A DNA stretch of 64,000 nt, taken from IMG/VR virus record IMGVR_UViG_3300030618_000005. One strand, written 5' to 3'. Source of the stretch: a virus (Duplodnaviria > Heunggongvirae > Uroviricota > Caudoviricetes). The translations under genes were made by a program, and so were the position numbers. The notes below the pieces were generated by a model. That model saw nothing but the letters and a program-made list of their open reading frames with translations. It ran no database searches and had not been told where the DNA came from. Position 1 is the first letter of the stretch, and every line of letters begins with the position of its first letter. Shown here one piece after another: positions 144 through 47,113 of this stretch.

Positions 144-1346
144 TTAGGCATAACTCTCCTCTTCCATCACCAGCTTGACGCCGTTGTTGTCGTCATCATC
201 TGGGTCACCCATAACGGGCCGGTTCAACTCTTCACGGTACTCGTCGCGCACCATCTTCCACGCAGCCTGCGACGGGTCTTTGCCATCGTAGGCCATGAAG
301 CAGAGGCCAGAGTACTTGCCGTCCTTCTCGGTTAGGAAGAACTCAGCAACAGACTTGCGACTCTCGTAGTTGCGGATAAGCGCATTGTCTACGATCTTCT
401 TGGTCTGAAGCATGATGCCAGCGTACGCAGTGGTGAAGGTCTTCTGCCACTCCTCAACGAAGCTCACAAGCTCCGGTCGGCCAGCATCCTTCGTCCATGT
501 CTCGATGATATCGTAGTCCCCGTTCGTCAGCGCCTCAAGGATGTTCTTCGGGGTCGCCGCGTGAACAATCTTCTGGAGCTTCAGGAAGGTCTCATGCTTC
601 ACCTTGATCTTCAAAGGCGGAAGGTTGGGCCGCCAGTACGACAGCACGTAGCCCTCCGTGTTCGGTCGATCCTCTACTAGAACCGTGCTCACCGTCTTAG
701 CAAAAATCTCGACGGTCTTTAGTCCGTTCAGGAATGCGTAGTGGTACAGCTCGTTGTAGCTAATCTCTTCGCCGGTCTCGTTGTTGATGAGCGCCAGTAA
801 GACTAGTTGATCTTCGATCTCGTAATGAACCACGTGGCGTTGAACTGCCTGCGCGATCATCTCAAAGACTGGTGTGTAGCCCGCAGGCCACTGGTGGTTC
901 TTGCAGTGCTTACTGAACCAGTACGTCGCCCACTTGGAGTGGTCAGACGTGAATGATCCTTTGGACGCGACACCGAAGAACGTATCGTTCCCTACCTTGT
1001 ACTCGTAGAAGATACCGAGTGACCCATCCAGCTTGTCGAAGACAGCAGGGTGTTGGTCCGGCAGATTGGTGAACAGAGTCTCAGGCCGGTCCAGCGTGTC
1101 GATGTTGAAGAACTTCTCGAACGGACGAGAGATGATGACACCCTTGTCGTCCACGATGAGACCACGGCACTTGATGGTGATGTCGTCCCAGACGTTATCA
1201 AAGGTCGCCTGCTTGCTATAGCAGAGGATCGACAACGGAAGCTCAGGGTGAGCGCGACGGGTAACTAGACCCTCCGCGATATACTGCTCAAGCTTGTCTA
1301 CGTCGAGGTAGTCTTTTAGCAACATTACTTCAGCTCCTTGGTCCAC
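144..1346 (-). CDS. rnlA: ATP-dependent RNA ligase, T4 RnlA (Rnl1)-like
   Basis: Motif I KLDGSL, CRGLIV..SRPFEKFFNID block, EGYV and LKIKVK motifs align by eye to T4 Rnl1. Confidence 0.75.
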   Translation of the reverse strand: MDQGAEVMLLKDYLDVDKLEQYIAEGLVTRRAHPELPLSILCYSKQATFDNVWDDITIKCRGLIVDDKGVIISRPFEKFFNIDTLDRPETLFTNLPDQHPAVFDKLDGSLGIFYEYKVGNDTFFGVASKGSFTSDHSKWATYWFSKHCKNHQWPAGYTPVFEMIAQAVQRHVVHYEIEDQLVLLALINNETGEEISYNELYHYAFLNGLKTVEIFAKTVSTVLVEDRPNTEGYVLSYWRPNLPPLKIKVKHETFLKLQKIVHAATPKNILEALTNGDYDIIETWTKDAGRPELVSFVEEWQKTFTTAYAGIMLQTKKIVDNALIRNYESRKSVAEFFLTEKDGKYSGLCFMAYDGKDPSQAAWKMVRDEYREELNRPVMGDPDDDDNNGVKLVMEEESYA

Positions 1347-1756
1347 ACACTACTGGTTATCTTGCGCCCCATTGCAGCAGCGGCCTTCTCCATCGGCTCG
1401 TTACCGTGAACGACTAGACCACAGACCTTCTTGCCGCCGTGCTTCAAAGTCGCTTTCTCAAACTTCTTCCACATGGCCTTGTAGATACCACGCCCGCGAT
1501 ACGCCTTGTTGACCCAGCCGAGTTGAACCCAGCCTGAATCGTCATCCTCATCGAAGAAGTACTGGAGGATTCCAACTACCTTACCCTTGTCTTCCACGTA
1601 GAAGCACGCCTGATCCCCACGGATGGGTGACCACATACCGCCTACTGCACCGATCTCGATCATATCTGGCACAGCTTCAAGAAACGCAGTCTTGATGACC
1701 TGCGTGTTCTTGGCTGCGTCAATGTGCTTCACGACGATCTTTTTCTTCTTCGCCAT
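1325..1756 (-). CDS. GNAT family N-acetyltransferase
   Basis: RGRGIYKAM acetyl-CoA binding motif; 143 aa. Confidence 0.6.
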   Translation of the reverse strand: MAKKKKIVVKHIDAAKNTQVIKTAFLEAVPDMIEIGAVGGMWSPIRGDQACFYVEDKGKVVGILQYFFDEDDDSGWVQLGWVNKAYRGRGIYKAMWKKFEKATLKHGGKKVCGLVVHGNEPMEKAAAAMGRKITSSVWTKELK

Positions 1757-5720: not shown

Positions 5721-6965
5721 CTATCTCCTTTTCGTTAGAAGTGCGCCTTGGAACTGAGCCATCGTATCGCCTTCTGGCCGCCCCTTGACAAAAGAGGTCG
5801 CCTGTGCTAGGGAATCCTCCGGGTAAAAGCGTTGGTACAGCTTGATCTTCTGATCGTCGGTCGCTTGACCAAGGTGCAGAAGTACATCGATCCGACCGGG
5901 CCTAATCAACGCCGGGTCCAGATTGTCGAGATGGTTCGTGGTCATGATGTAGATCACGCCGCTAGGGGCATGAAAGCCATCGAGAACATTCAGTAACCCA
6001 GATAGTGTAACACCAAACAGCTTCTCGTGTCCATCACTATCTTCAACTTTGTTCGGGTGGGGTCCGGGTGTTACGCCTTCCTTCCACTCCTGATCCCTTG
6101 GGCCGTCATTAGTGGCCTTGCGTTTCTTGCCAGCACCAGATGCGTCGATGTCCTCGAACATGATGATCGAACCTTCGGGCACAGTGCTTATCGCAGTCTT
6201 CAATCCCTTGTCACTCAGGTCACCAAGGTTCATCAGGTAAATGTCCCGGCTCAGTTGGTACGCTAACCCTGACGCCAAGGATGTCTTGCCGGTCCCCGGA
6301 GGCCCATAGAAGGCGTAGCCACGATGGTAAGGGATACCCAGCTCCCTATAGCGTTCCTTGTCGCCTAGGAACTCGTTTACGTCTTGCAGCAGTTTCTCCT
6401 TCTCCTGCCCGTCGAGCACCACGGACTCAAACGTACGCGGCGAATAGCTCCTCAGCTTTATCCAGTACTCGTCCCACACATACAGCTTGCTCTCACTACG
6501 CTCAGCCTCTTTGTGAATCTCGATGATCTCGGTAACGAACTGCTTGATGCGTTCCTGCCTGCGGCCAATCGTGCTGAAGGAGATTGTCTCACTCCTCTTC
6601 GCGTCCCAGCCGCCCTTCTTATCCTCGCTCCGCGTGTAGTTCAGCCAGAATGGTAGACGCTTGTGCCAGAAGAAGTGCTCCCCCGGCGCGGGCATCAGAG
6701 AGATGAGCTTGCCACGGATGGTCGAGTCAAGATCGACGCGGCGTACACGCGGCATGAATTTCTGCTTGGTGATCCACTCCTTCACCCAAAGAAAGGAAGG
6801 GTCGTCGTCCTTCACTGTTACGCTTACGAGTACTTGTCGTTTGAACCAGAGCCAAATCATCTGCGGCACTGATTTCATGTAGGCCATCACACCACCCATA
6901 ACTAGAAGCATTGCTCCACTGGCGGTAAACTGATTCAACATCTCAGGTGGTAGCCCTATGAGCAT
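5721..6965 (-). CDS. BCS1-like AAA+ ATPase with N-terminal transmembrane segment
   Basis: Walker A GPPGTGKTS, Walker B IIMFEDIDAS, GVTLSGLLNVLDG, PALIRPGRID; N-terminal TM. Confidence 0.75.
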   Translation of the reverse strand: MLIGLPPEMLNQFTASGAMLLVMGGVMAYMKSVPQMIWLWFKRQVLVSVTVKDDDPSFLWVKEWITKQKFMPRVRRVDLDSTIRGKLISLMPAPGEHFFWHKRLPFWLNYTRSEDKKGGWDAKRSETISFSTIGRRQERIKQFVTEIIEIHKEAERSESKLYVWDEYWIKLRSYSPRTFESVVLDGQEKEKLLQDVNEFLGDKERYRELGIPYHRGYAFYGPPGTGKTSLASGLAYQLSRDIYLMNLGDLSDKGLKTAISTVPEGSIIMFEDIDASGAGKKRKATNDGPRDQEWKEGVTPGPHPNKVEDSDGHEKLFGVTLSGLLNVLDGFHAPSGVIYIMTTNHLDNLDPALIRPGRIDVLLHLGQATDDQKIKLYQRFYPEDSLAQATSFVKGRPEGDTMAQFQGALLTKRR

Positions 6966-6993: not shown

Positions 6994-7206
6994 TCATATC
7001 TCGATATCTCCCAGCGTAACGGTTACGCTCCTCGGCTGCACGGTAGCGTTGCAAGTCTTCCACGGCTTGACTCGGACGGTGGACGACGATAGGCTCTCAA
7101 CGTAGCCGTGTCGCCAGCCCTCATCATAGTACCGCACGAAGGAATCGGCCACGAGTAAACACGCTTTGCGGATATCAAATGGCCGTTTCCATCTGCGGGG
7201 TTTCAC
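6994..7206 (-). CDS. hypothetical protein
   Basis: ORF in array. Confidence 0.3.
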   Translation of the reverse strand: MKPRRWKRPFDIRKACLLVADSFVRYYDEGWRHGYVESLSSSTVRVKPWKTCNATVQPRSVTVTLGDIEI

Positions 7207-7670
7207 TATACTACCGTCCTGTTCTTCTTGTTGAAGCGATTCTCCAGCCGGTTGAGGTTCACATCGCCCCGTTGAACGACTGTACGCTTCTCAGTACCGT
7301 TAGGTTGAACCCTAACACGGACCACAGTGGCGGGTCCATTCTTAGGATAGGTCTTGAATCCATCCTTCGACTTCTGCTTGGCCTTGAACGCGGCCTGAGC
7401 CTTCTGCTTTGCTGCTTGAATCGCCGCCTTGTCCGGCCCTAGGTAGTAGTGCGGGAACTGCGGGGTGTGGCTGAAGTGACCACCGCGCTCATGAGTCTTC
7501 TGGGCGAAGCGCCAACCTTTGAGCCATAGATCACGCTGCGGGTTGGTAGTGTACGGAACGTCGATGCGTTGCGGTTTGTGGTCTGCTCCAAAGTATCCAG
7601 TGCTGTAAGCACCATAGTATGCGTCGTAACCGGCCTTGAGTGCGCCGAGTGAAGCCTTCTTGTTTGACAA
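7206..7670 (-). CDS. ribosome modulation factor (Rmf)-like domain protein with basic C-terminal extension
   Basis: GYDAYYGAY..VPYTTNPQRDLWLKGWRFA matches Rmf core GYQAG..CPYQTLNQRSQWLGGWREA. Confidence 0.5.
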   Translation of the reverse strand: MSNKKASLGALKAGYDAYYGAYSTGYFGADHKPQRIDVPYTTNPQRDLWLKGWRFAQKTHERGGHFSHTPQFPHYYLGPDKAAIQAAKQKAQAAFKAKQKSKDGFKTYPKNGPATVVRVRVQPNGTEKRTVVQRGDVNLNRLENRFNKKNRTVV

Positions 7671-7882
7671 ACGGGTGATTCCTAATACAGTGTCGTGCGA
7701 CCATCCGGGTGGTTCCCCAGACCGTGATGGGTGAAGCGGTACTTCTTTACAGTACTACAGTCGGCTCTTCCTGTCAAGCCATCTTTGTCTCAACGTGTAA
7801 CCAGCTACTACAACGAGCACGACAGCAATACCCACAAGATAAATGCGGCCAGCTCGGATTATAAAGTCCATGATGATCTCCC

Positions 7883-8256: not shown

Positions 8257-8568
8257 CTATGCAGTTAGCGTAGTGCCCACCTTGGCCCTGCAAACATGAG
8301 AATCCGGCATACCTAGTCCGCAAGCAGGGCATTCTCTAAGCGGTCGAAGCCCACCCTTGGTCTGATTTTCTGGAAACATGAAGGCGTCTACATCTTCTCC
8401 GCATACTTCGTAGATTTCATCGATCTGCCCCTGTGTATAGTTTTGAAATTCGATGCGGATAGATTCGCCAGCCCCTAGTGCGTCCAGAAGAGCATCATAG
8501 ACAGGTGCATGATTGCAGTCAGTCAGTCCGCACCATTCACATCGAATCCACATCCCCTCACTCATCAC
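8257..8568 (-). CDS. Cys-rich hypothetical protein
   Basis: CEWCGLTDC..C..C pattern. Confidence 0.4.
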   Translation of the reverse strand: MMSEGMWIRCEWCGLTDCNHAPVYDALLDALGAGESIRIEFQNYTQGQIDEIYEVCGEDVDAFMFPENQTKGGLRPLRECPACGLGMPDSHVCRAKVGTTLTA

Positions 8569-9732: not shown

Positions 9733-10272
9733 TTATGCCTCGATTCCTAGATGGGAGTTGATTGCATCTGAAGCAGTATCGTCAGACACTCTCAGGTAGT
9801 AGCCAGTCGAGGACAAGCTCTTGTGGCCAAGTCTTTGTTTAGCGTTCTCAATACCGGACCCAATGACGAGCATGGCAATCGAGTGCTTCAGCGTGTGCGT
9901 GTGCGCGAACCGTGGGTTGATACCAGCCCGCAGTGCAGCGGCTTTGAATACTTTGCGAACCCAGTCACGACCGATGGGCAGCAGCAGCTCATCGTCCGCG
10001 ATCTCCAACCGTTCGAGCATTGCGTACTCGTCCAGCTCCGGGTCAGGATGCTTCTGCCACCGTTGCGAGGTAGCCAGCGATCCCTTCAGGCGCTTACAGT
10101 CCACGTATCCGTGGCGAAGGTCGCGCCCTTTGATACCAGTGATCTCGGAGGCCCGCAAGCCATGCCAGAAACCGATGAGGTAGGCCAGCTTGAACCTCTC
10201 ACCCTTCTCGCTCTCGATCTCCCTGAGTACCGCCTTCACTTGGTCAATCTTTAGATACTTCATTCCGTTCAC
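9733..10272 (-). CDS. small tyrosine recombinase (catalytic domain only)
   Basis: RASE, HTLKHS, LGHKSLSSTGYY (R..H-x-x-R..Y) in 179 aa. Confidence 0.6.
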   Translation of the reverse strand: MNGMKYLKIDQVKAVLREIESEKGERFKLAYLIGFWHGLRASEITGIKGRDLRHGYVDCKRLKGSLATSQRWQKHPDPELDEYAMLERLEIADDELLLPIGRDWVRKVFKAAALRAGINPRFAHTHTLKHSIAMLVIGSGIENAKQRLGHKSLSSTGYYLRVSDDTASDAINSHLGIEA

Positions 10273-12096: not shown

Positions 12097-12777
12097 TTAC
12101 GAGGTTACCGTTGCCCTCATGCGCCGGTAGATCGTTGTGGCTCCCCCCAAGAGTCCAGTGCCTAAGAGCAGCAGGCTGCTGGGTTCAGGGGTAGGTGCCA
12201 GCGGTGTCGTTGGTCCAGTACCGTTCGAGGTGAACTGGAGGAAGTCTTGCGCTGTGCCGCCCTCGCTCTGCGTACCGGGTACGGCGGTGTACAAGGTGAA
12301 CTGCTGGAGGAACGCCTGCGTCACGTCGCCGCTCAGAGCCAGCGTTTCGTCTTGGAAGAGCAGCGGGTCATCTGCGTTGAAGTTCCAGCCCAGTGTCTCG
12401 GCGCTGTTCACGTCCGTCAAGGCCCAGATATCGAGCTGCGCCGTGGTGTCAGAGATAACTCCGGTCTGCGCCTGATAGAGCAGGAGGGCACTGGTTACGT
12501 CGTCCCCATTCGGCGGGTGGGCTGCGCTGAGATTCTGCGGAGTTGCCTGCCATGACTCACCCACGTAGATTTCGCGGTCGGCATCGAGGCAGAAGGCGGA
12601 GATGTCGCTCTTGTTGGAGTCGTACAGGCTATAAGGCCCGACGTAGACTGCGCCGGTTGGGTTGACAACATTGCCGGGGCTTACGAGGGAGAGGGTGTCG
12701 GCGTGCGCGGTCAGTGACAAGGCCGCGAGGATAAGTGCGGCTACCACTGGGATGTACTGCTTGAAGGTGATTCGCAT
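12097..12777 (-). CDS. secreted PEP-CTERM sorting-domain protein
   Basis: N-terminal signal peptide; C-terminal PEPSSLLLLGTGLLGGATTIYRRMRA (exosortase target). Confidence 0.65.
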   Translation of the reverse strand: MRITFKQYIPVVAALILAALSLTAHADTLSLVSPGNVVNPTGAVYVGPYSLYDSNKSDISAFCLDADREIYVGESWQATPQNLSAAHPPNGDDVTSALLLYQAQTGVISDTTAQLDIWALTDVNSAETLGWNFNADDPLLFQDETLALSGDVTQAFLQQFTLYTAVPGTQSEGGTAQDFLQFTSNGTGPTTPLAPTPEPSSLLLLGTGLLGGATTIYRRMRATVTS

Positions 12778-31579: not shown

Positions 31580-32398
31580 TTACTTGCCTTCTAGGATCAA
31601 CGGCACCTTAGCGTCGTTGAAGATACAGCGGGAGTTAGGGTTGGCGCAAGCATTAGCCTGCATCTTGACGCGCTCCAGTTGGATGAACTGATCGGGCGAG
31701 AGGCCCATCTGGTTTCGGTAAGCGTTGTCAGCTTCAGCGCGGGAAAGCTCGGCGGCTTTACGTGAGTCCTCAGCCAGTTTGCGCTGCGCCTCGGTGTTGA
31801 CGCGCTGCTCTTGCGCAGCAGTCTCTACACGCTGGTGCTTGATGAGGTCAGGTGGGTTGGCCTTGCCGATGGTCACGCGGACCACATGCACGGGAATCTT
31901 GGTGGCCACAATGTAGTCACTCAGGTTCTTCGTGACCTCCTGCTCGATCACCTCGATGGCTGACGACTTGATGGCAGTCTCGTTAGAGTCGTACTTCTTG
32001 GCCGACTGGCGCACGTAGTTCTGGAACTGGCGCTGGATGTTGTTGGGGTACCACGCCTCACCAAAGTTCTTGATGAGCTTCACAGAGTCATCAACTTGGA
32101 CGATGAGCTGTGGATCGAACTCCAAAGGCACGCCGTCGCTGGACATCAAGTCCTTCAGGTCTTCCGTGACTGCGATGGGCTGCATGTTGACAAAGATGGC
32201 TGAGGTGGTGGGCGCTGTGAACGTCAGGCCGGTCTTCACAGGCGTATCATCTACACCGCCGTGTCCGAAGATCAGTGGCTTCTCGACGAGTACGGCTTCA
32301 AAGCCGTTGTTTGGGGACACAGTATTACATCCCAGAGTCGCCAGAGTTACCAACGAGGCCAGTACCAGAATTGCTAACAGAATATATCCGCGCTTCAT
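31580..32398 (-). CDS. lipoprotein with coiled-coil (SPFH/band-7-like?)
   Basis: Lipobox LATLGC; C-terminal AAQEQR..AEL coiled coil. Confidence 0.4.
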   Translation of the reverse strand: MKRGYILLAILVLASLVTLATLGCNTVSPNNGFEAVLVEKPLIFGHGGVDDTPVKTGLTFTAPTTSAIFVNMQPIAVTEDLKDLMSSDGVPLEFDPQLIVQVDDSVKLIKNFGEAWYPNNIQRQFQNYVRQSAKKYDSNETAIKSSAIEVIEQEVTKNLSDYIVATKIPVHVVRVTIGKANPPDLIKHQRVETAAQEQRVNTEAQRKLAEDSRKAAELSRAEADNAYRNQMGLSPDQFIQLERVKMQANACANPNSRCIFNDAKVPLILEGK

Positions 32399-33264: not shown

Positions 33265-33543
33265 TCAGGAGAGCCATTTACCGTCGTCTTTCTTTTTCTT
33301 GCTGCGTACCTTATCGATCTCGTCGATAACGGAACCCACTATTGCGAAGATCAACGCTGCCAGAATAAACAGCAACGACAGTGCCACCAGTACCGATATC
33401 GGTCCCCACAGGGGTATGAACACAATCCACCATGAATGCGGGAAGAACCCAGCAAGTTTAGCGACGACAAAAATCAAGGTCAAAATAGAGAAGAACGGAA
33501 ACGAACTCTTGCCGCCTTTTACCAACTGCTCTTGTCCAGACAT
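33265..33543 (-). CDS. membrane protein (3 TM)
   Basis: hydrophobic helices; AAGGAG RBS. Confidence 0.45.
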   Translation of the reverse strand: MSGQEQLVKGGKSSFPFFSILTLIFVVAKLAGFFPHSWWIVFIPLWGPISVLVALSLLFILAALIFAIVGSVIDEIDKVRSKKKKDDGKWLS

Positions 33544-33564
33544 ACATCTCCTTTATAAACCCTC

Positions 33565-33965
33565 GCCAGTGACAACCCCAATCACCCGCCGACCGACCCC
33601 ATGAAAATCCATTCGTCAGCCTTCCCACGTAAATGTTTAGACTGGGGGATCGCTCCCCCTTCTGTTGCTAGGCCCGTCAAGAGGCCCCAGCGGTTATTAG
33701 GCCGCAAGTAGCTGTGCTGCAACAACGCTCTTGCGAACGCTGAAACGGACACGGCTGTGGCTGACACTTTCGGTGACAGTTCTTTTTTTCCAGCAGTCAA
33801 GGTCGCTAGGCACCTGCACAGTCCACTCTTCTATCTGTATCCGTCGAAGCCGTGACATCCCCGTATGCGGTACGCTTACGAGATTGTTTTGGTGGAGATG
33901 GCGAGAGTCGAACTCGCGTCCGTCTACCGACTTTGGAGCTTCATACCATGCGTAACTTTTTGAAT
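33565..33965 (-). ncRNA. ssrA: circularly permuted (two-piece) tmRNA-like gene
   Basis: See first finding: E. coli-like 3-prime T-arm/acceptor with encoded CCA, GGGGAUG 5-prime end with G3:U70, tag frame ..AAQLLAA-UAA-UAA. Confidence 0.6.
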
Positions 33966-33993
33966 TGTATCAAACTTGATCGGTCTTGTCAAC
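33964..33993 (-). promoter_or_regulatory. sigma70-like promoter TTGACA-17-TACAAT for the tmRNA acceptor piece
   Basis: Consensus hexamers with 17-bp spacer, read on minus strand. Confidence 0.5.
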
Positions 33994-34438: not shown

Positions 34439-37135
34439 TCATTTTTTCCAACACTCCGCGATGTTCGAATCGAACTCCATGACCACTGCTGTCATCTTCA
34501 CCGCTGCGGCCCGCTTGAATGCGTCACCGATCAGCTTTGCTACCTCAGTGGCTTTGTGCTTAGGACATTGTACCACAAGCTCGTCATGCACCATCTTGAT
34601 GAGACGCGCACGGAAGGTGGGAAGAGTATGCCACAGGTACGGCACTCCGTCCTTGTCGAACCCACAACCGCCCGCCAGCTTGATGATCGTGGCGTTCGTA
34701 CCCTGAATGGCGTGGTTCTTTCCTTGGCGCTCGATAGAGCCTGACATCGCGCCCATTGCCTTACCGATCTCTTTCTGAGTCGGCTGGTTGTGCTCGATGA
34801 ACCACAGCTCTTCTTTGTCCGGCTTGCGGTTGTTGTTCTTGACGAAGAGGTCGTACTTCAATTGTGCCTCTTCAGGTGACAATCTCAGCTTCTCTTCGTT
34901 GTCAACCTTCGCCTTCTCCTTCGCACGATCCCACGTGGGGTCTGGGAAGAGACGACGCCGACCGTACATATCGAACGAGCGTTTCTTCATGTAGGCATTC
35001 TTGCCAGACTGCTCAAGGTATGCCCAGATGCGCGGGAACTTCTTGGAGTGCAGCTCCATCAGCTCAGCGGCCTTCTCGACCGTCTTGCCGATTGATTGCG
35101 CGAGTTTGCTTGGGCCGCCGCCGTACGCCAGCAGGAAGTTCGTGCTCTTGTTTTCGTTCCTCAGCTCAGCGTGTCCTTTGCATTTGCACTTCTGCCGCGC
35201 CGGTTCGCCGTTCTCTTTTTTCGCATAGTACTTGCAGCCGGGTTCAGTAAGGACTACCCAGCCCTGCTCGTGCAGAATCTCAGTGCCTACAGAGTGAACG
35301 TCCTCGCCGCGACCGAAAGCACCGATCCACACCGGGTCTTGTGCCAGCTCCGCGATGATACGAAGCTCCGCGCCGGACATATCGGCGGTGATGATTACAT
35401 ACTCTTCTGCGTGGGTGTTACAAAGCTCTCCGCAGGCGGAGCACCTAAATCCGGGCACAGAGAAGTCCGCAACATAGATGCCCTCACGAGGAGGCGCGTC
35501 AGCATTGCAGCAATCAGAAACACGTATGGACTCGTTAGGAGGATCAGCAATAAAACAGGAGCGAACTGCTTCGTCCTGCGGTAGGTTCTGGCCATTAGGT
35601 TTCTCCGATGAGGAACGCCCAGTCTCAGCATCGTACTGGTTGTAGACGCAATGCAGACGCCCGTCGCCGGGGTGCAACCACCCTTCCTCTTTGCATGGCT
35701 TGCCCGTCCACTCTGTAGCCCACTGGTATCCGTACGTCCCGATCTCCTTGGAAAGAGTGTGAAGCTTACGGATTGAACCGCAGATAGCGAAACCCTTGGC
35801 CTCATACTTCGCCAGTGTGTCATCGTCGCACTTCTTCATCGACTTGAGGCCCTTGATCTCTTGTAGGGCCGCTAATAGCTGGGAATCGCTACTGTAGTTG
35901 ATGAGTGCTGCGCCTTCGCACTTGGCGGCGAGGTTTTTGATCTTCGTCCGCTTCTTTTTCATGTCGCTGTGCTCGGTCTTCAGCGTCTCCTTCAAGTCCT
36001 TACGCTGTTGCTCAAGCAGAGCCTTTTGCATTTCGAGGTGCGCCATCGCCGCAGTGTCGCCCGCCTTCTTGTAGACCGCGATCTGTTTCTTCAGCTCCAG
36101 CTCAGCCGGGGAGACGACGTTGAACGCCTTCCACTGCGCTTCCTTCGCATCGATCTCAGCATCAGTATTTATGTCGTACTTGCTGCCGACGAGAGGGATG
36201 AAGTACGGGTCGAGCGAGTCGCTATAGAGCGCGGTCAGCTCGGCTATCTTGCCGTCGATACGCTTGCGCCACTTCTCCTTGTCCATGCGCTCACCGTGGA
36301 TGTGCATGTCCTCGAACATGCCGATGGCGTCATTCTCGATCTGGACAATCTCGTTGAGATTGTCGCCCATGACGATAGGCTCGTTGCTGGAGTTCTTAGG
36401 CTCAAGGTTCTCCATGAACTTGGCCATCGGGCTGCCCTTCTCTTTGAGAGTCTTCAGGCGAATGCCGGACGCGACGACCTTCTGGGCCATCATGATGTTC
36501 AGTGGGAACCGCGTATCGAGTGCGGCGTATTTGATCTGACCCGGCTCAAGCACTGCGTCGAGAGTGAACGATTCCTGATACTGTTTGTCCACAGTCTTTC
36601 GGAAGTAACGCTCCATCATCTCGTTCATGGAGTAGTAGCCGTAGTCCTTCATCGAGTGCGCCCCGGCCCAGATGCACTTCTCCGCCATCGAGCAATCGTA
36701 GTAGTTGTACGTGCGCAGGCCGAAGTTCCAGTAGAAGGTCATGTACTCGAAGCCGAGATTCACGCCGACCTTCAGGAAGTTTCGAGAGCACAACACAGGC
36801 TCCAATATGAGCATCAACTCTTTGAGCTTTGGAGGAAGGTTCGCGCCGTACTGACCTTGGCATGAGAAGAGTAGGTTCGGATCGTTGTCGCAGAAGGGCA
36901 AGAGGTCGATCACGTACTGCTCGACGTTGTTACCAAACTGGACAGTACGGCAGCGCCGGAAGAAGTAGTCCTTCAACGGGGTCGTTTCAACGTCCCATCC
37001 GAGTACACCTTTGTCGTTCGCTTGGACACGCGCAAAGAAATCCTGAAGAGAAGCAAGCTCTTCGAGGCTCTGGATGAAAGTAACTTTGAGTGGGGGCGTG
37101 AGTGTTTCTATGTCAATCGGGGTGATTGGCTGCAA
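34439..37135 (-). CDS. family A DNA polymerase with 3-5 exonuclease domain and Cys-rich insertion
   Basis: Exo VLGWDVETT; YNQ..TGRSSS..PNGQNLP; DMSGAELRIIA; NKSTNFLLAYGGG; HDELVVQ. Confidence 0.9.
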   Translation of the reverse strand: MQPITPIDIETLTPPLKVTFIQSLEELASLQDFFARVQANDKGVLGWDVETTPLKDYFFRRCRTVQFGNNVEQYVIDLLPFCDNDPNLLFSCQGQYGANLPPKLKELMLILEPVLCSRNFLKVGVNLGFEYMTFYWNFGLRTYNYYDCSMAEKCIWAGAHSMKDYGYYSMNEMMERYFRKTVDKQYQESFTLDAVLEPGQIKYAALDTRFPLNIMMAQKVVASGIRLKTLKEKGSPMAKFMENLEPKNSSNEPIVMGDNLNEIVQIENDAIGMFEDMHIHGERMDKEKWRKRIDGKIAELTALYSDSLDPYFIPLVGSKYDINTDAEIDAKEAQWKAFNVVSPAELELKKQIAVYKKAGDTAAMAHLEMQKALLEQQRKDLKETLKTEHSDMKKKRTKIKNLAAKCEGAALINYSSDSQLLAALQEIKGLKSMKKCDDDTLAKYEAKGFAICGSIRKLHTLSKEIGTYGYQWATEWTGKPCKEEGWLHPGDGRLHCVYNQYDAETGRSSSEKPNGQNLPQDEAVRSCFIADPPNESIRVSDCCNADAPPREGIYVADFSVPGFRCSACGELCNTHAEEYVIITADMSGAELRIIAELAQDPVWIGAFGRGEDVHSVGTEILHEQGWVVLTEPGCKYYAKKENGEPARQKCKCKGHAELRNENKSTNFLLAYGGGPSKLAQSIGKTVEKAAELMELHSKKFPRIWAYLEQSGKNAYMKKRSFDMYGRRRLFPDPTWDRAKEKAKVDNEEKLRLSPEEAQLKYDLFVKNNNRKPDKEELWFIEHNQPTQKEIGKAMGAMSGSIERQGKNHAIQGTNATIIKLAGGCGFDKDGVPYLWHTLPTFRARLIKMVHDELVVQCPKHKATEVAKLIGDAFKRAAAVKMTAVVMEFDSNIAECWKK

Positions 37136-38953: not shown

Positions 38954-39077
38954 TTGCGGGTAGCTCAGCGGTAGAGCATTCGGCTGTGCGAGATGTGGAA
39001 CGCCACGCTCCAGTGCAACTCTGGAATCTCGAAAAGTAACCGAACGGTCGCTGGTTCGATCCCAGCCCCGTGAGCCA
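38954..39077 (+). tRNA. atypical tRNA-like gene with 49-nt structured insertion in anticodon arm
   Basis: Canonical acceptor, D-arm, T-arm and encoded CCA; anticodon stem TTCGG/CCGAA encloses a 56-nt three-way junction. Confidence 0.45.
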
Positions 39078-42938: not shown

Positions 42939-44975
42939 ATGAAGCTTCAGAAACTACGAGACCTAATCGCCTCGTGTAAGACGAACCCGAACTATCAGTT
43001 CCGTGAAACAAGTAACGAAGATATCCTCGCGTTGGCCAAGAAGAGCTTTTCGAAGCTCACTGACGGTCAGCGCGAGAAGGTTTATGCGTCATGGAAACGT
43101 GCGCTAGACATGAACAAGGAGGCGCTGGACGACTCAACCGGTGAGCTATTGCTCATCGCTCGATTCATGGCCCAGACCAACCTGTTCTTCATGTGTCACC
43201 TGTTGGAAACCTACAACAAGGTCACCGTGAATACCCACGAAGAAATTTGCAACAAGTTTTTCGTGCAGAAGAACCCGACTTTCGTAACAGTAGAGAAGTT
43301 TGCCAACCAGTATACTGACCTCAAGGATCGAATGTTGCTAGTCCCACGAGGCGGGTTCAAATCTTCTATCGACATTGCAGACGTGGTTCAGTGGGTGAGT
43401 TGCTACCCCGCGATTACCATTCTGATCCTGACGGGTGTGTTCGACCTCGCCAGTGACTTCCTCGGAGAAGTCAAGAACCACTTCACTCTCATAGAGTCGC
43501 AGAAGCTCGACACCAAGACCGGCAAGCCGGTACTCGTGCCCAAGCTCTTCTTCGACGAAGAGACAGAGGAATGGTCTGAAAGCATGTTCCAAACGTTGTT
43601 CCCTGAGCACTGTGTTCCTCCAGCCTCAGGCACTCAGTTCGAGTATCACTCCCCAGCGCAGGGCGATCAGAAAGAGCCAACCGTGAAGGCCGCGTCCATC
43701 GGACAAGCCCTCGTCGGTAAGCACTTTGACGTGATGAAGCTGGACGACGTTATCACGAACGAGAACAGTCAAACCGTTGACCGTTTGAAGAAAATCGCTA
43801 AGCAGATCAGTATTGATCGAGCCATGCTTCACCCTTACGGATTCATGGACGTAATCGGCACGTGGTACGACGAGAAGGACTACTACGGCGAGAAGATCAA
43901 GCAGCAGGAAACGTTCATCAAGGAAGAGGGTCTGTCGAACCTCATCACTGGCAGCGTTGACTCCGGGCGACTGAACATCGAGTACAAGACCAAGACCTAC
44001 CTTCGAGCCGCAATGTGGCTCACCGATCAAGCGATCAAGGAAGGCAAGACCGACGTAGACGCCAAAGGTCCAGACTATGAACTCTGGTTCCCTGAGCGTC
44101 TGCCTTTTAGCTTTTTGTATGATGAGAGAAAGACGGACCCGGAAGGGTTCGCCATCAAGTACCTCAACAACCCGAGAAAGATCAACCGTATCAAGTTCGA
44201 GCGTGCCCTTCTGATGAAGCGCACTATCCCGCACAACATGCTGCCGCCGCAAGGCGTCGTCGTGACGACAGTAGACACAGCGTATTCAACAAAGTCATGG
44301 GCCGATTACACCGTTATCCTGACCACGCTGATATATGGCGGGCGTTTCTACATCCTCAACATGGTGCGCGGACGATTCAACGAGATCGAGCTGCCTGCGG
44401 TTATCGCCAACACAGCGTACAAATGGAAGCCTAAGCGAATCGCCATCGAAGACTCGGTGGGCGTGAAGTGGATGGGACGCGAACTCCGTCGAGAGATGGA
44501 CAAGCTGCAAATCAGCATTCCGATTGAGTACTGCTCTCTGGGCCTCGGCAAGAAGTCTAACTCGAAACAGATGAAAGCCAAGCCGGTACTCCGACTGCTT
44601 GGCGACGAGCGTATGTTCTTCCTCAACTCCTGCGAAGGGTTGAACGAACTCTACAACGAACTCGAAGCCTTCACGGGCACCAGCGACGACACACACGACG
44701 ACATTATCTCCGCACTATCCCTATTGGTTGAGCAGTTCATCTCTTATGCCGATGTGGGATCGAAAGTGGACATGGTGAACTCGCAGTATGTTGCAGATCA
44801 ACAGAACCACGAACGTCATCAACTCGTACACGGTATTGGCAAGTATGCTCACATGAACATAAAGGCCCAGCTCGTGAATGATGACAACCCGGTGACTGCG
44901 TTCCAGATCGACAACAGCCGTATGTTCCGCGATGAGCCAATGGGCACTGACCCGTTTGCCGATCTATTCAACTAA
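42939..44975 (+). CDS. terL: terminase large subunit
   Basis: N-terminal ATPase block LLVPRGGFKSS; RNaseH-like nuclease block VVTTVDTAYST..HDDIISALSL; RMFRDEP near C-terminus. Confidence 0.85.
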   Translation: MKLQKLRDLIASCKTNPNYQFRETSNEDILALAKKSFSKLTDGQREKVYASWKRALDMNKEALDDSTGELLLIARFMAQTNLFFMCHLLETYNKVTVNTHEEICNKFFVQKNPTFVTVEKFANQYTDLKDRMLLVPRGGFKSSIDIADVVQWVSCYPAITILILTGVFDLASDFLGEVKNHFTLIESQKLDTKTGKPVLVPKLFFDEETEEWSESMFQTLFPEHCVPPASGTQFEYHSPAQGDQKEPTVKAASIGQALVGKHFDVMKLDDVITNENSQTVDRLKKIAKQISIDRAMLHPYGFMDVIGTWYDEKDYYGEKIKQQETFIKEEGLSNLITGSVDSGRLNIEYKTKTYLRAAMWLTDQAIKEGKTDVDAKGPDYELWFPERLPFSFLYDERKTDPEGFAIKYLNNPRKINRIKFERALLMKRTIPHNMLPPQGVVVTTVDTAYSTKSWADYTVILTTLIYGGRFYILNMVRGRFNEIELPAVIANTAYKWKPKRIAIEDSVGVKWMGRELRREMDKLQISIPIEYCSLGLGKKSNSKQMKAKPVLRLLGDERMFFLNSCEGLNELYNELEAFTGTSDDTHDDIISALSLLVEQFISYADVGSKVDMVNSQYVADQQNHERHQLVHGIGKYAHMNIKAQLVNDDNPVTAFQIDNSRMFRDEPMGTDPFADLFN

Positions 44976-44983
44976 GGAGAAAC

Positions 44984-47113
44984 ATGGCTGAACTAAATGA
45001 AGCTCCGGGGATAGTCGCGGACGGTGTAGCACGTGAGACGCTTGACCCATTGGACTACGGCAAGGGTGGAACCCTCAAGACCCTAAACGCTGACCTAGCA
45101 CTCGTGCTTGGAAGCGCCAGCAAAGCCGAAGCTTTCATCAGCGAGAAGCAGTGGAACCTCTTGTGGCGTGATGCCGACTTGCTCTACCAGTCGCCGCGCC
45201 CGATGTCAGTGTACGAGAACACATACGTCCTCGAACCTAACGTACAACGATTTACAGTAGCAAAGGTAGTGAACTCTGTCGTACCCTCTCTCTACAAGGG
45301 CCTGTTCTATGCAGACCCTCCGATGGTACTCCGACCGCGCTCAGGCACGAGTCAAGACACCATAGATGCCAAGACCGTGCTCTTCAGCTATTTGCTGAAC
45401 GACTGTGGATTCAAGACCGAAACCAAGTGGGGACTCGAACAGATGGCTTGCCTCGGCACCGGCATCTGGAAGTGGGGAGTTGACTACAAGGAAGTGGTAA
45501 CGTGGGAACGCAAGTCCACTACGACCACGATCACTGGTGGTGTAGGACAGGATCAGGTCACGCAGAAAGTTCCTCTGGATGTACCCCCAGACGTGAAGCG
45601 TAAGTCCCGTGTTGTGCCGCGACCGTTCTTCGAGTCGCGCCCGATCAACAAGGTGTTCGTAGACCCGAAGTGCGATGTCGGGGATATCCGCAAAGCAGAC
45701 TTCGTGATCGACGTTCGCTACATGGACTTCTACCAGCTCAACGATATCCGCGCAGCTCTCGAAGAGCTTCCCGAAGATCACCCGGACAAAGATGGGTGGG
45801 AGTTGCCGAAGTCTGAAGACGAGCTTCGCAAGTGGTGGTTCGCACCATCCGGCACGAACGTAGCACCAGTACTCGCCAGCGACACAATGGCGTACATGCG
45901 CGGTGCAGTTCACCATGCTGAAGAGATGAACATTCAGGTGACCCCTGACATGCTCTTCAAGAAGATGGAAGTGCTTGAGTATTGGGATAGAAACCGCAAG
46001 GTTCTTGTCATCGACCGCAAGAAAGTGATCTTCACCGGACAGAACAAGTTCGGCGTTATCCCGTTCCTCAGTGCAAACTGGTGGAACCGCGCCAAGGCAT
46101 TCTACGGCATGGGCCTCGGCCTTATCGTCGGACAGAATCAGCGCGTCGACCAAGGCACCATCAACGCAATTCTGAAGATGCTGTCGTTCGGGATCAACCC
46201 GATCTATCTTCGCCAGCGCGACACAAACGCGCCGACGCAAATGATACGCACCGGGATCGGTAAGATTCTAACTGTGGACGGTATCGCCAAAGAAGCATAT
46301 CACCTACTCGACACTCCTAAGGTTCCACCAGACATCTGGTCGGCCCTAAGCGAGTCAGAGAAGGCAACCGAGTCCGCATCGGGCGCAGATCAAGCGCTCG
46401 TACAAGGCTCGTCATCCGGCCCCCGTTCTTCTATGGGGCGCACCGCAGGAGGCGCAGGCATCCTCGCAAGTGCAAGCGCGACTCGTCTCGACGGGCCGCT
46501 CGACAACTTCATCGAACAGGTGTTCAGCCCGTTCCTCTACATCCTCGACATGCTCGTCATGCGATACCTATCAGACGCCGAGATTTATGCAGTACTGGGC
46601 GAAGAGATGGGCGACGACTACGAAGTAGACCTTGACCAGTTTCACGCGGCTAAGATCGAGTTCGAAGTACTGGCCGGTGCCGCGCTTGCGGCGAAACGCA
46701 CAATGGCGCAGTCGATGACTCTCATCACACAGATTCTTGAGAACCCCCAGATTGTTGAATCTCTCGCTGACATCAACGAGGAGTACATCAACTGGAAGGA
46801 AATCGTCATGATGTGGATCGAGTCAACGGAGTGGAAGAACAAGAACGACATCATCAAGAAGATGACGCCGGAAATGAAACAGAAGCGTGCCGCTGCATCG
46901 CAGCAGGCGCAGGCCGCGTCCAAAGCCGCCGTTACTGCACAGAGCAACCAACAGAAGTTCCAGCAGAAGCAGCAGCTTGAAGACCAGTCTAACGACAATC
47001 GCATCAAGCGTGACTTGGTACGTGAGTCGTTCAAGGACAACGCTCAGAGTGAAGCGACCGAAGGGTTGCCGAGCACTGGCGGGTTGGAAGGACAACAGCC
47101 TACAGTTGCATAA
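44984..47113 (+). CDS. portal protein (by position and size)
   Basis: 709 aa directly after terL; Q/A-rich C-terminus. Confidence 0.55.
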   Translation: MAELNEAPGIVADGVARETLDPLDYGKGGTLKTLNADLALVLGSASKAEAFISEKQWNLLWRDADLLYQSPRPMSVYENTYVLEPNVQRFTVAKVVNSVVPSLYKGLFYADPPMVLRPRSGTSQDTIDAKTVLFSYLLNDCGFKTETKWGLEQMACLGTGIWKWGVDYKEVVTWERKSTTTTITGGVGQDQVTQKVPLDVPPDVKRKSRVVPRPFFESRPINKVFVDPKCDVGDIRKADFVIDVRYMDFYQLNDIRAALEELPEDHPDKDGWELPKSEDELRKWWFAPSGTNVAPVLASDTMAYMRGAVHHAEEMNIQVTPDMLFKKMEVLEYWDRNRKVLVIDRKKVIFTGQNKFGVIPFLSANWWNRAKAFYGMGLGLIVGQNQRVDQGTINAILKMLSFGINPIYLRQRDTNAPTQMIRTGIGKILTVDGIAKEAYHLLDTPKVPPDIWSALSESEKATESASGADQALVQGSSSGPRSSMGRTAGGAGILASASATRLDGPLDNFIEQVFSPFLYILDMLVMRYLSDAEIYAVLGEEMGDDYEVDLDQFHAAKIEFEVLAGAALAAKRTMAQSMTLITQILENPQIVESLADINEEYINWKEIVMMWIESTEWKNKNDIIKKMTPEMKQKRAAASQQAQAASKAAVTAQSNQQKFQQKQQLEDQSNDNRIKRDLVRESFKDNAQSEATEGLPSTGGLEGQQPTVA

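Follow-up and report, generated by a model that had tools for sequence, protein, structure and literature searches.

A tailed-phage protein that joins an Rmf-like helical hairpin to a C-terminal motif resembling the 30S-docking tail of ribosomal protein bL31

Ribosome modulation factor (Rmf; PF04957, NF011162; PDB 4v8g, 6h4n, 2jrm) is a single-domain protein of about 55 amino acids (aa), encoded in the chromosomes of Gammaproteobacteria. In the Escherichia coli 100S structure, its helix alpha1 inserts between h28 and h37/h40, with R3, K5, R8, R11 and R15 hydrogen-bonding the 16S rRNA backbone, and its linker and helix alpha2 touch the C-terminal extension of uS7 and fix the 16S 3' end, including its anti-Shine-Dalgarno sequence (anti-SD) (bioRxiv 10.1101/382572). 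Small Rmf-like domains also occur on mobile elements, where they fall into the Rmf/CrpP family (NF041886) and the CrpP family associated with integrative and conjugative elements (ICEs; NF033696); CrpP proteins are short, single-domain components of the backbone of Pseudomonas pKLC102-type ICEs and of plasmids (PMC9495688). Among phages, two 'RMF domain superfamily' proteins were annotated in Agrobacterium phage Milano (PMC6588377; gp60 and gp76), and similar proteins are found in Caulobacter phage CcrBL9, Stenotrophomonas phage Salva (59 aa) and phrog_10492, all of them single-domain proteins of 46-78 aa from phages of Proteobacteria; E. coli Rmf itself matches phrog_10492 and phrog_13106 weakly. 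Phage-borne Rmf-domain proteins have therefore been annotated before, and no function has been demonstrated for the Rmf-like hairpins of either ICEs or phages. Here we describe a gene for an Rmf-like protein of different architecture, located at positions 7206-7670 of a 64,000-nucleotide (nt) stretch of DNA from a tailed phage (Caudoviricetes; IMG/VR record IMGVR_UViG_3300030618_000005), hereafter the window.

The second protein with which the product of this gene has to be compared is bL31. Its N-terminal domain lies on the 50S subunit's central protuberance and is connected by a flexible linker to a C-terminal domain that binds uS13, uS19, uS14 and h41/h42 in the 30S head; this C-terminal segment forms bridge B1b/c, which in E. 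coli matters for subunit joining, initiation and fidelity. Deletion of the last 8 residues of bL31 impairs subunit association and 100S formation as the full deletion does, and the K62-R63 bond, within the motif considered below, is shielded by the 30S subunit (PMC9966373; PMC7530986).

The gene and the parts of its product are as follows.

7206..7670, minus strand: Rmf-like gene, 154 aa, with TTG start at 7670-7668 and TAG stop at 7208-7206
7680..7683, minus strand: ribosome-binding site AGGA, 9 nt 5' of the TTG, read from the sequence
7473..7670, minus strand: Rmf/CrpP-like helix-loop-helix domain (residues 1-66), with helix 2-24, a loop and helix 45-61
7494..7565, minus strand: block shared with Rmf residues 27-50 (linker and helix alpha2) according to hhalign, residues 36-59, IDVPYTTNPQRDLWLKGWRFAQKT
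7263..7472, minus strand: basic linker (residues 67-136), variable in length and sequence, predicted to be mostly disordered after one helix
7209..7262, minus strand: family-conserved C-terminal motif (residues 137-154), VNLNRLENRFNKKNRTVV, defined from alignments A3 and A9 and further members
7221..7250, minus strand: bL31-matching core (residues 141-150), RLENRFNKKN, which matches the bL31 C-terminal GRVDRFNKRF/Y

The open reading frame (ORF) is real. It has a single possible start, the TTG, as the protein contains no internal Met and the frame lacks any ATG or GTG that could serve instead, and independent gene calls gave a near-identical protein (P0001, 99% identity) on at least 37 contigs from metagenomes, up to 97 kb in length. 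An earlier note on this DNA, made by a model from the letters alone, had given both the ORF and a peptide from it correctly, and its description of a long basic C-terminal extension is borne out as well, the 154-aa protein having an isoelectric point of 10.3 and 29 Lys and Arg residues versus 10 Asp and Glu. The gene is preceded by a 212-nt non-coding gap (7671-7882), unusually long for such a tightly packed block, in which a 38-aa ORF was called in one metagenome copy; a scan for promoters and terminators around the gene yielded nothing convincing on the minus strand and no sigma-70-like promoter on the coding strand.

An exhaustive hidden Markov model (HMM) search of 1.84 billion representative proteins returned 16 matches, of which 15 are true relatives of 118-179 aa; the other, a 627-aa repeat protein (P0017), was judged to be spurious. 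A second, word-indexed search added seven relatives, and the family comprises about 25 sequence clusters, all on phage-size contigs and none with a precomputed Pfam domain. A word-indexed profile search with the head domain alone recovered family members only, with no bridging sequences, and pattern scans of 185,579 species genomes and IMG/VR detected no relatives, so that nothing points to a copy in a host or a prophage. Neither the 154-aa protein nor four relatives matched PHROGs, and megablast and tblastn searches against phage records gave a single protein relative, gp82 of Tunturiibacter phage Tunturi_3 (40% identity), which is annotated as 'hypothetical protein' and is the only cultured relative. 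Tunturi_3 is a podovirus of Acidobacteriota from tundra soil (PMC11924767), and judging from these searches the family appears to be confined to one soil-phage lineage related to it.

In alignment A3, the family consists of three parts: a conserved N-terminal domain with the consensus AGYxAxxxAxSxGxFG ... NPYxxxPxxxLWxxGWRxA ... G..F, a variable, basic, K/Q/P-rich linker, and a conserved extreme C-terminus, NLxRLxxFNKKxRTxV. In the structure model of the 154-aa protein, the predicted local distance difference test (pLDDT) score of the linker is below 50 at residues 108-134. This combination of tether and tail was previously unannotated, unlike the short Rmf-like phage proteins, with which the family shares an Rmf-like hairpin encoded among small early genes; those proteins and CrpP lack the C-terminal extension, tether and bL31-like tail, and the present family has no PHROG. 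Phages also encode ribosomal proteins, such as bS21, a small basic protein at the 30S platform and anti-SD that biases translation; the phage bS21-type proteins are true homologs of ribosomal proteins, whereas the present protein is chimera-like, and Pfam scans of 17 family members revealed no sequence relationship to bS21.

The relationship of the head to Rmf is remote and consistent across methods. RMF is the sole Pfam match of the 154-aa protein (E-value 0.018; 15.5 bits against a cut-off of 27.9), and the NCBIfam models behave alike, with the Rmf equivalog NF011162 at E 0.0018 (18.1 bits against 40) and the Rmf_CrpP_fam model NF041886 at E 0.0044 (16.6 bits against 28). When 17 family members were scanned singly, all 17 matched Pfam RMF (best E 1.3e-4, none reported above the cut-off) and no other Pfam family was matched by more than one of them; NF041886 was matched weakly by eight and the CrpP model NF033696 by three. 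A four-sequence family profile searched against the PDB retrieved RMF chains only (2jrm at E 0.008), and hhalign against 22 genuine Rmf sequences gave 94.3% probability, E 1e-7 and 46% identity, over 24 columns only, pairing phage residues 36-59 with Rmf 27-50 (91% probability with the domain-only alignment). The match is carried by the PY..W..GWR.A block, in which P39, Y40, W49, G52 and W53 are invariant or nearly so in the family, and the family conforms to the Rmf linker/helix-2 motif C/x-P-Y-x6-R-x2-W-L-G-G-W-R-x-A. A tblastn search with E. coli Rmf produced no match among phage records.

AlphaFold2 modeling of residues 1-75 with 15 family sequences (pLDDT 83; predicted template modeling score 0.72) yielded the helix-loop-helix listed above, so that the head is predicted to adopt the two-helix hairpin of ribosome-bound RMF, and in a fold comparison of the domain model RMF ranked first, at full coverage and with identity higher than for any other match. 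The BFVD comparison gave as best matches uncharacterized phage proteins of 51-59 aa, for example from Stenotrophomonas phage Salva (30% identity, probability 0.97), with a protein of a Caulobacter phage annotated as 'ribosome modulation factor' lower in the list. A Foldseek search with the full-length model (pLDDT 61) returned ferritins and other long helices at E >2, which is meaningless, and was redone with the domain-only model. The checks suggested in the earlier note, a Pfam Rmf search and a structure prediction, thus gave sub-threshold HMM support and an Rmf-like fold, and neither of the outcomes that the note had named as refuting its reading occurred. Its designation of the protein as Rmf-like holds for the helical hairpin, recovered by HMM, profile-profile and fold comparison, but every score lies below the curated cut-off of the respective family, and we accept residues ~1-66 as a remote relative of the Rmf/CrpP superfamily that belongs to neither named family. 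The register proposed there, GYDAY against GYQAG, is off by 11 residues and was rejected; the ungapped HMMER register, in which phage residue i pairs with Rmf residue i-9, instead favors G25-Y26, whose spacing to P39-Y40 equals that of G16-Y17 to P30-Y31 in Rmf.

In this register, the equivalents of Rmf R3, K5, R8, R11 and R15 are K12, G14, A17, G20 and T24, so that four of the five basic residues of helix 1 are replaced. The replacement is family-wide in A3, with G14 and A17 invariant or nearly so, T24 predominant and position 20 occupied by G, M or A, which amounts to remodeling into a surface rich in Tyr, Phe, Ala and Gly. What the phage protein retains is the linker and helix alpha2, the part that in E. 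coli Rmf holds the 16S 3' end. At 154 aa versus 55 aa it is also about three times the length of Rmf, adds the tether and the C-terminal motif, and is encoded in the genome of a phage whose host is probably an acidobacterium, in contrast to the gammaproteobacterial hosts of Rmf. By these features of its sequence, the phage protein falls outside canonical Rmf and probably does not act as a 100S factor.

The tail offers a second possible link to the ribosome. A profile of the 21 positions of the conserved C-terminus (alignment A9) was searched against all PDB sequences, and the nine best distinct matches were all bL31, of types A and B, from Bacillus, Staphylococcus, Enterococcus, Listeria and others, at marginal E-values of 0.11-0.5; the aligned stretch reads 'RLNrFNKKy' in the family and 'RVDRFNKKY' in bL31 (residues 55-63 of 66). 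We next assembled a set of 80 genuine bL31 genes (78 distinct) taken from genomes, in which GR[VI][DE][RK]F[NKRQ][KRQ][RK][FY] is almost universal and the four from Acidobacteriota read ...TAGRVDRFNKRYARG.... Against the alignment of the 78 sequences, hhalign gave P 7.8e-6 and 84% probability over 10 columns with the tail profile, and P 5e-4 at the same place with the whole-family profile. When the columns of the tail alignment were permuted 400 times, with its composition and conservation kept, no permutation reached the observed score of 25.4 (mean 8.1, standard deviation 2.2, maximum 19.8).

The variants on the two sides run in parallel: family tails include RLEKFNKKH, RIDKFNNKF, RIEKFNNKY, GRIEKFNNKY and, in Tunturi_3, RLDKFNKKH, and bL31 includes RVDRFNKRF, RIEKFNKRY and RIDKFNKRF, giving a common G/K-R-[VIL]-[DEN]-[RK]-F-N-[KN]-[KR]-[FYH] that in both cases lies near the C-terminus after a flexible linker. 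The copy in the window, RLENRFNKKN, comes from a subgroup in which one residue is inserted, and its aromatic position is occupied by N. The likeness is limited to this motif of 9-10 residues: alignment A3 contains no counterpart of the N-terminal, 50S-binding domain of bL31 (in type A a CxxC...C..CHPF zinc ribbon), and Pfam scans of family members gave no match to Ribosomal_L31 (PF01197); scans of the 22-aa tail peptides gave none either, although peptides of this length do not pass the filters of HMMER. The phage tail therefore appears to be a motif mimic of bL31, not a whole-protein homolog. Several points weigh against reading it as a ribosomal signal, namely that the match is short, was found post hoc and has a database-wide E-value of about 0.1, and that the phage family adds an invariant R-T-x-V end without counterpart in bL31. 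We nevertheless find it persuasive because head and tail lead, each on independent grounds, to one and the same particle, because in both proteins it is a terminal peptide preceded by a linker, and because the match coincides exactly with the segment of bL31 that docks on the 30S head.

Taken together, these similarities suggest that the protein is probably directed to the ribosome. The specific model that we favor, tentatively and at slightly less than even confidence, is that of a bivalent 30S ligand that combines an Rmf-like head with a mimic of the bL31 tail. The head would occupy the Rmf pocket beside the 16S 3' end and the anti-SD, and the tail would enter the place on the 30S head at which bL31 docks (uS13/uS19/uS14, h41-h42). 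The tether, which is basic, largely disordered and ~45-100 residues in length, should be long enough and would bridge the two sites across the head and neck of the subunit. As a second anchor, the tail could make up the avidity lost with the basic contacts of helix 1, and would be a competitor of bL31 at bridge B1b/c. A free 30S subunit bound in this way would be held idle, unable to join the 50S subunit and with its 16S 3' end shielded.

The expected outcome would be a dose- or time-limited, hibernation-like parking or shielding of free 30S subunits and not a total shut-off. A blanket anti-SD shut-off is not favored because the phage's own genes use Shine-Dalgarno sites: with crudely assigned starts, 52 of 90 gene starts have such a motif, compared to 11% of random windows. 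The suggestion in the earlier note that host translation is shut down or reprogrammed thus gains on one side, the idea of a ribosomal target being strengthened by an extension that ends in a motif in common with the 30S-binding tail of bL31, but loses on the other, since a plain anti-SD shut-off would hit the phage too. Parking and shielding would agree with the observation that YbeY and RNase R are denied access to the 16S 3' end by hibernation factors (PMC7913689), and would fit the RNA-repair and ribosome-rescue genes of this phage (RNA ligase, tmRNA, tRNAs).

The most serious competitor is a function away from the ribosome, for which the neighboring genes form part of the evidence.

6994..7206, minus strand: 70-aa partner gene, whose GTG start overlaps the TAG stop of the Rmf-like gene by one base (TAGTG, 7204-7208)
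5721-6965, minus strand: BCS1-like AAA ATPase with BCS1_N (E 2e-24) and an AAA domain, matching phrog_7485 (E 4e-88), with a hydrophobic N-terminus
9733-10272, minus strand: half-size tyrosine-recombinase-family protein of 179 aa, catalytic domain only (Phage_integrase, E 1.5e-12)

Each of the 11 distinct loci has a homologous partner of 67-90 aa 3' of the Rmf-like gene (the window with the near-identical L002-L005, L006-L010, L012-L014 and Tunturi_3; HMM E-values 1e-18 to 1e-40). The 1-nt stop/start overlap is usual, with one small ORF intervening in Tunturi_3 and L014. The partner has the motif VxYYDxGWxHGY...R.VKIPL.DVEI, and searches with the 70-aa copy, possibly a small beta-barrel, matched nothing in Pfam, PDB sequences or PHROGs. 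The BCS1-like AAA ATPase follows the Rmf-like gene in the window, L006, L008 and L012, and does not in L009, L010, L013, L014 and the Tunturi_3 region examined; lying two genes 3' of the Rmf-like gene in the window, it would represent a mitochondrial-type module for translocation of folded proteins in a phage. Upstream, a tyrosine-recombinase-family ORF (~175-186 aa) is found one to seven genes away in most loci, the short contigs L005, L007 and L008 being exceptions; the related phages that carry it otherwise look lytic.

Under this alternative, the hairpin would be a generic module of mobile elements within a nucleic-acid-binding or adaptor factor that works with the 70-aa partner, to which it is translationally coupled, and sometimes with the BCS1-like ATPase; DNA or RNA could be a ligand of the basic tether, and the C-terminal peptide might dock the partner. 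The universal presence of the partner and its overlap with the stop codon speak for such a role, as do the ATPase in several loci, the remodeled aromatic, small-residue surface of helix 1 and the extra RTxV end. It is also in line with the CrpP relatives in ICE backbones, the enzymatic role of CrpP having been refuted according to a passage in PMC9495688 that cites Zubyk and Wright 2021. However, all the loci come from a single phage lineage, so that synteny is weak evidence for functional coupling, and the ATPase is missing from several of them. A non-ribosomal role also leaves unexplained why it should be the 30S-docking motif of bL31 that the tail matches, and why the block of Rmf that holds the 16S 3' end has been retained. 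We consider this alternative unlikely, if still worth serious attention.

Far less probable is that the protein acts as a canonical Rmf, dimerizing 70S ribosomes into 100S particles and shutting down host translation globally. The fold and motif are those of Rmf, and E. coli RMF binds the heterologous Thermus ribosome (PDB 4v8g), so that the pocket is conserved across phyla. The sub-threshold scores, the loss of the helix-1 basic residues, the three-fold length and the need of the phage genes for the anti-SD all argue otherwise. Furthermore, 100S formation by Rmf and short HPF is specific to Gammaproteobacteria, unlike the likely host, and few 100S particles arise in E. coli deprived of bL31 (PMC9966373), so that a tail competing with bL31 would, if anything, oppose dimerization. 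The 100S hibernation invoked in the earlier note thus finds nothing to point to it in this protein. A chance resemblance, in which a basic-tailed helical hairpin without relation to Rmf or bL31 happens to look like both, is marginally less probable still, given that RMF is the only Pfam family for 17 of 17 members and its chains the only PDB sequences matched by the family profile, that hhalign gives 94% and RMF is the top fold match, that none of the 400 tail permutations reached the observed score, and that both likenesses lead to proteins binding the same 30S subunit.

The genomic setting is that of a tailed phage with a minus-strand early/replication block and a plus-strand morphogenesis block.

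34439-37135, minus-strand block: family-A DNA polymerase
144-1346, minus strand: Rnl1-type RNA ligase
1325-1756, minus strand: GNAT acetyltransferase, its 3' end overlapping the start of the Rnl1-type RNA ligase, a pair that recurs in related contigs
42939-44975, plus-strand block: terminase
44984-47113, plus-strand block: SU10-type portal
33697-33952 (33491-33985 by ARAGORN), minus strand: permuted (two-piece type) transfer-messenger RNA (tmRNA), Rfam RF04321 (71 bits; gathering score 47)
38954-39077, plus strand: tRNA-Asn(GTT) whose anticodon loop contains a 49-nt intron, Rfam tRNA 47 bits, found by ARAGORN -i
12097-12777, minus strand: PEP-CTERM sorting-motif protein, Pfam E 1.7e-5
31580-32398, minus strand: SPFH/Band 7 (stomatin-like) protein, adjoining the tRNA/tmRNA cluster

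The tmRNA, tRNAs and RNA ligase to which the earlier note had pointed are all present, as a permuted tmRNA, six tRNAs (five ordinary ones and the intron-bearing Asn(GTT)) and an Rnl1-type ligase. The tag peptide of the tmRNA predicted by ARAGORN is GKADEWIFMGSVGG, and a default ARAGORN run missed the tRNA-Asn(GTT). Tunturi_3 also carries an RNA 2'-phosphotransferase, and this enzyme, the intron-bearing tRNA and the Rnl1-type ligase hint at phage-borne tRNA splicing or repair.

An acidobacterial host is likely, as we infer from the relationship to gp82, from a stretch of 83 nt (8408-8490) that is 92.8% identical to the phages Tunturi_1 and Tunturi_2, otherwise unrelated in DNA, and from the PEP-CTERM protein, which suggests a host with an exosortase system, consistent with Acidobacteriota. 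The 83-nt match lies inside or beside a Cys-rich 103-aa ORF (8257-8568).

The co-occurrence of the hairpin with the bL31 tail motif, as a further and independent signature of ribosome docking, turns the present family into a concrete and testable hypothesis, for which a cultured phage-host pair exists in the form of Tunturi_3, with gp82, and Tunturiibacter psychrotolerans X5P2 (PMC11924767). In its fullest form, which we regard as a doubtful but attractive extension of the bivalent 30S ligand, the protein would be a single-polypeptide 30S capture factor of an undescribed kind, whose head masks the anti-SD and whose tail evicts or pre-empts bL31 at B1b/c, and which would park, protect or re-route small subunits in a phylum that lacks its own Rmf, perhaps in concert with the 70-aa partner. 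If true, this would represent a new form of viral handling of the small subunit, in which mimicry of an intersubunit-bridge peptide is combined with a hibernation-factor fold, and would provide the first functional handle on the Rmf/CrpP class of mobile-element proteins.
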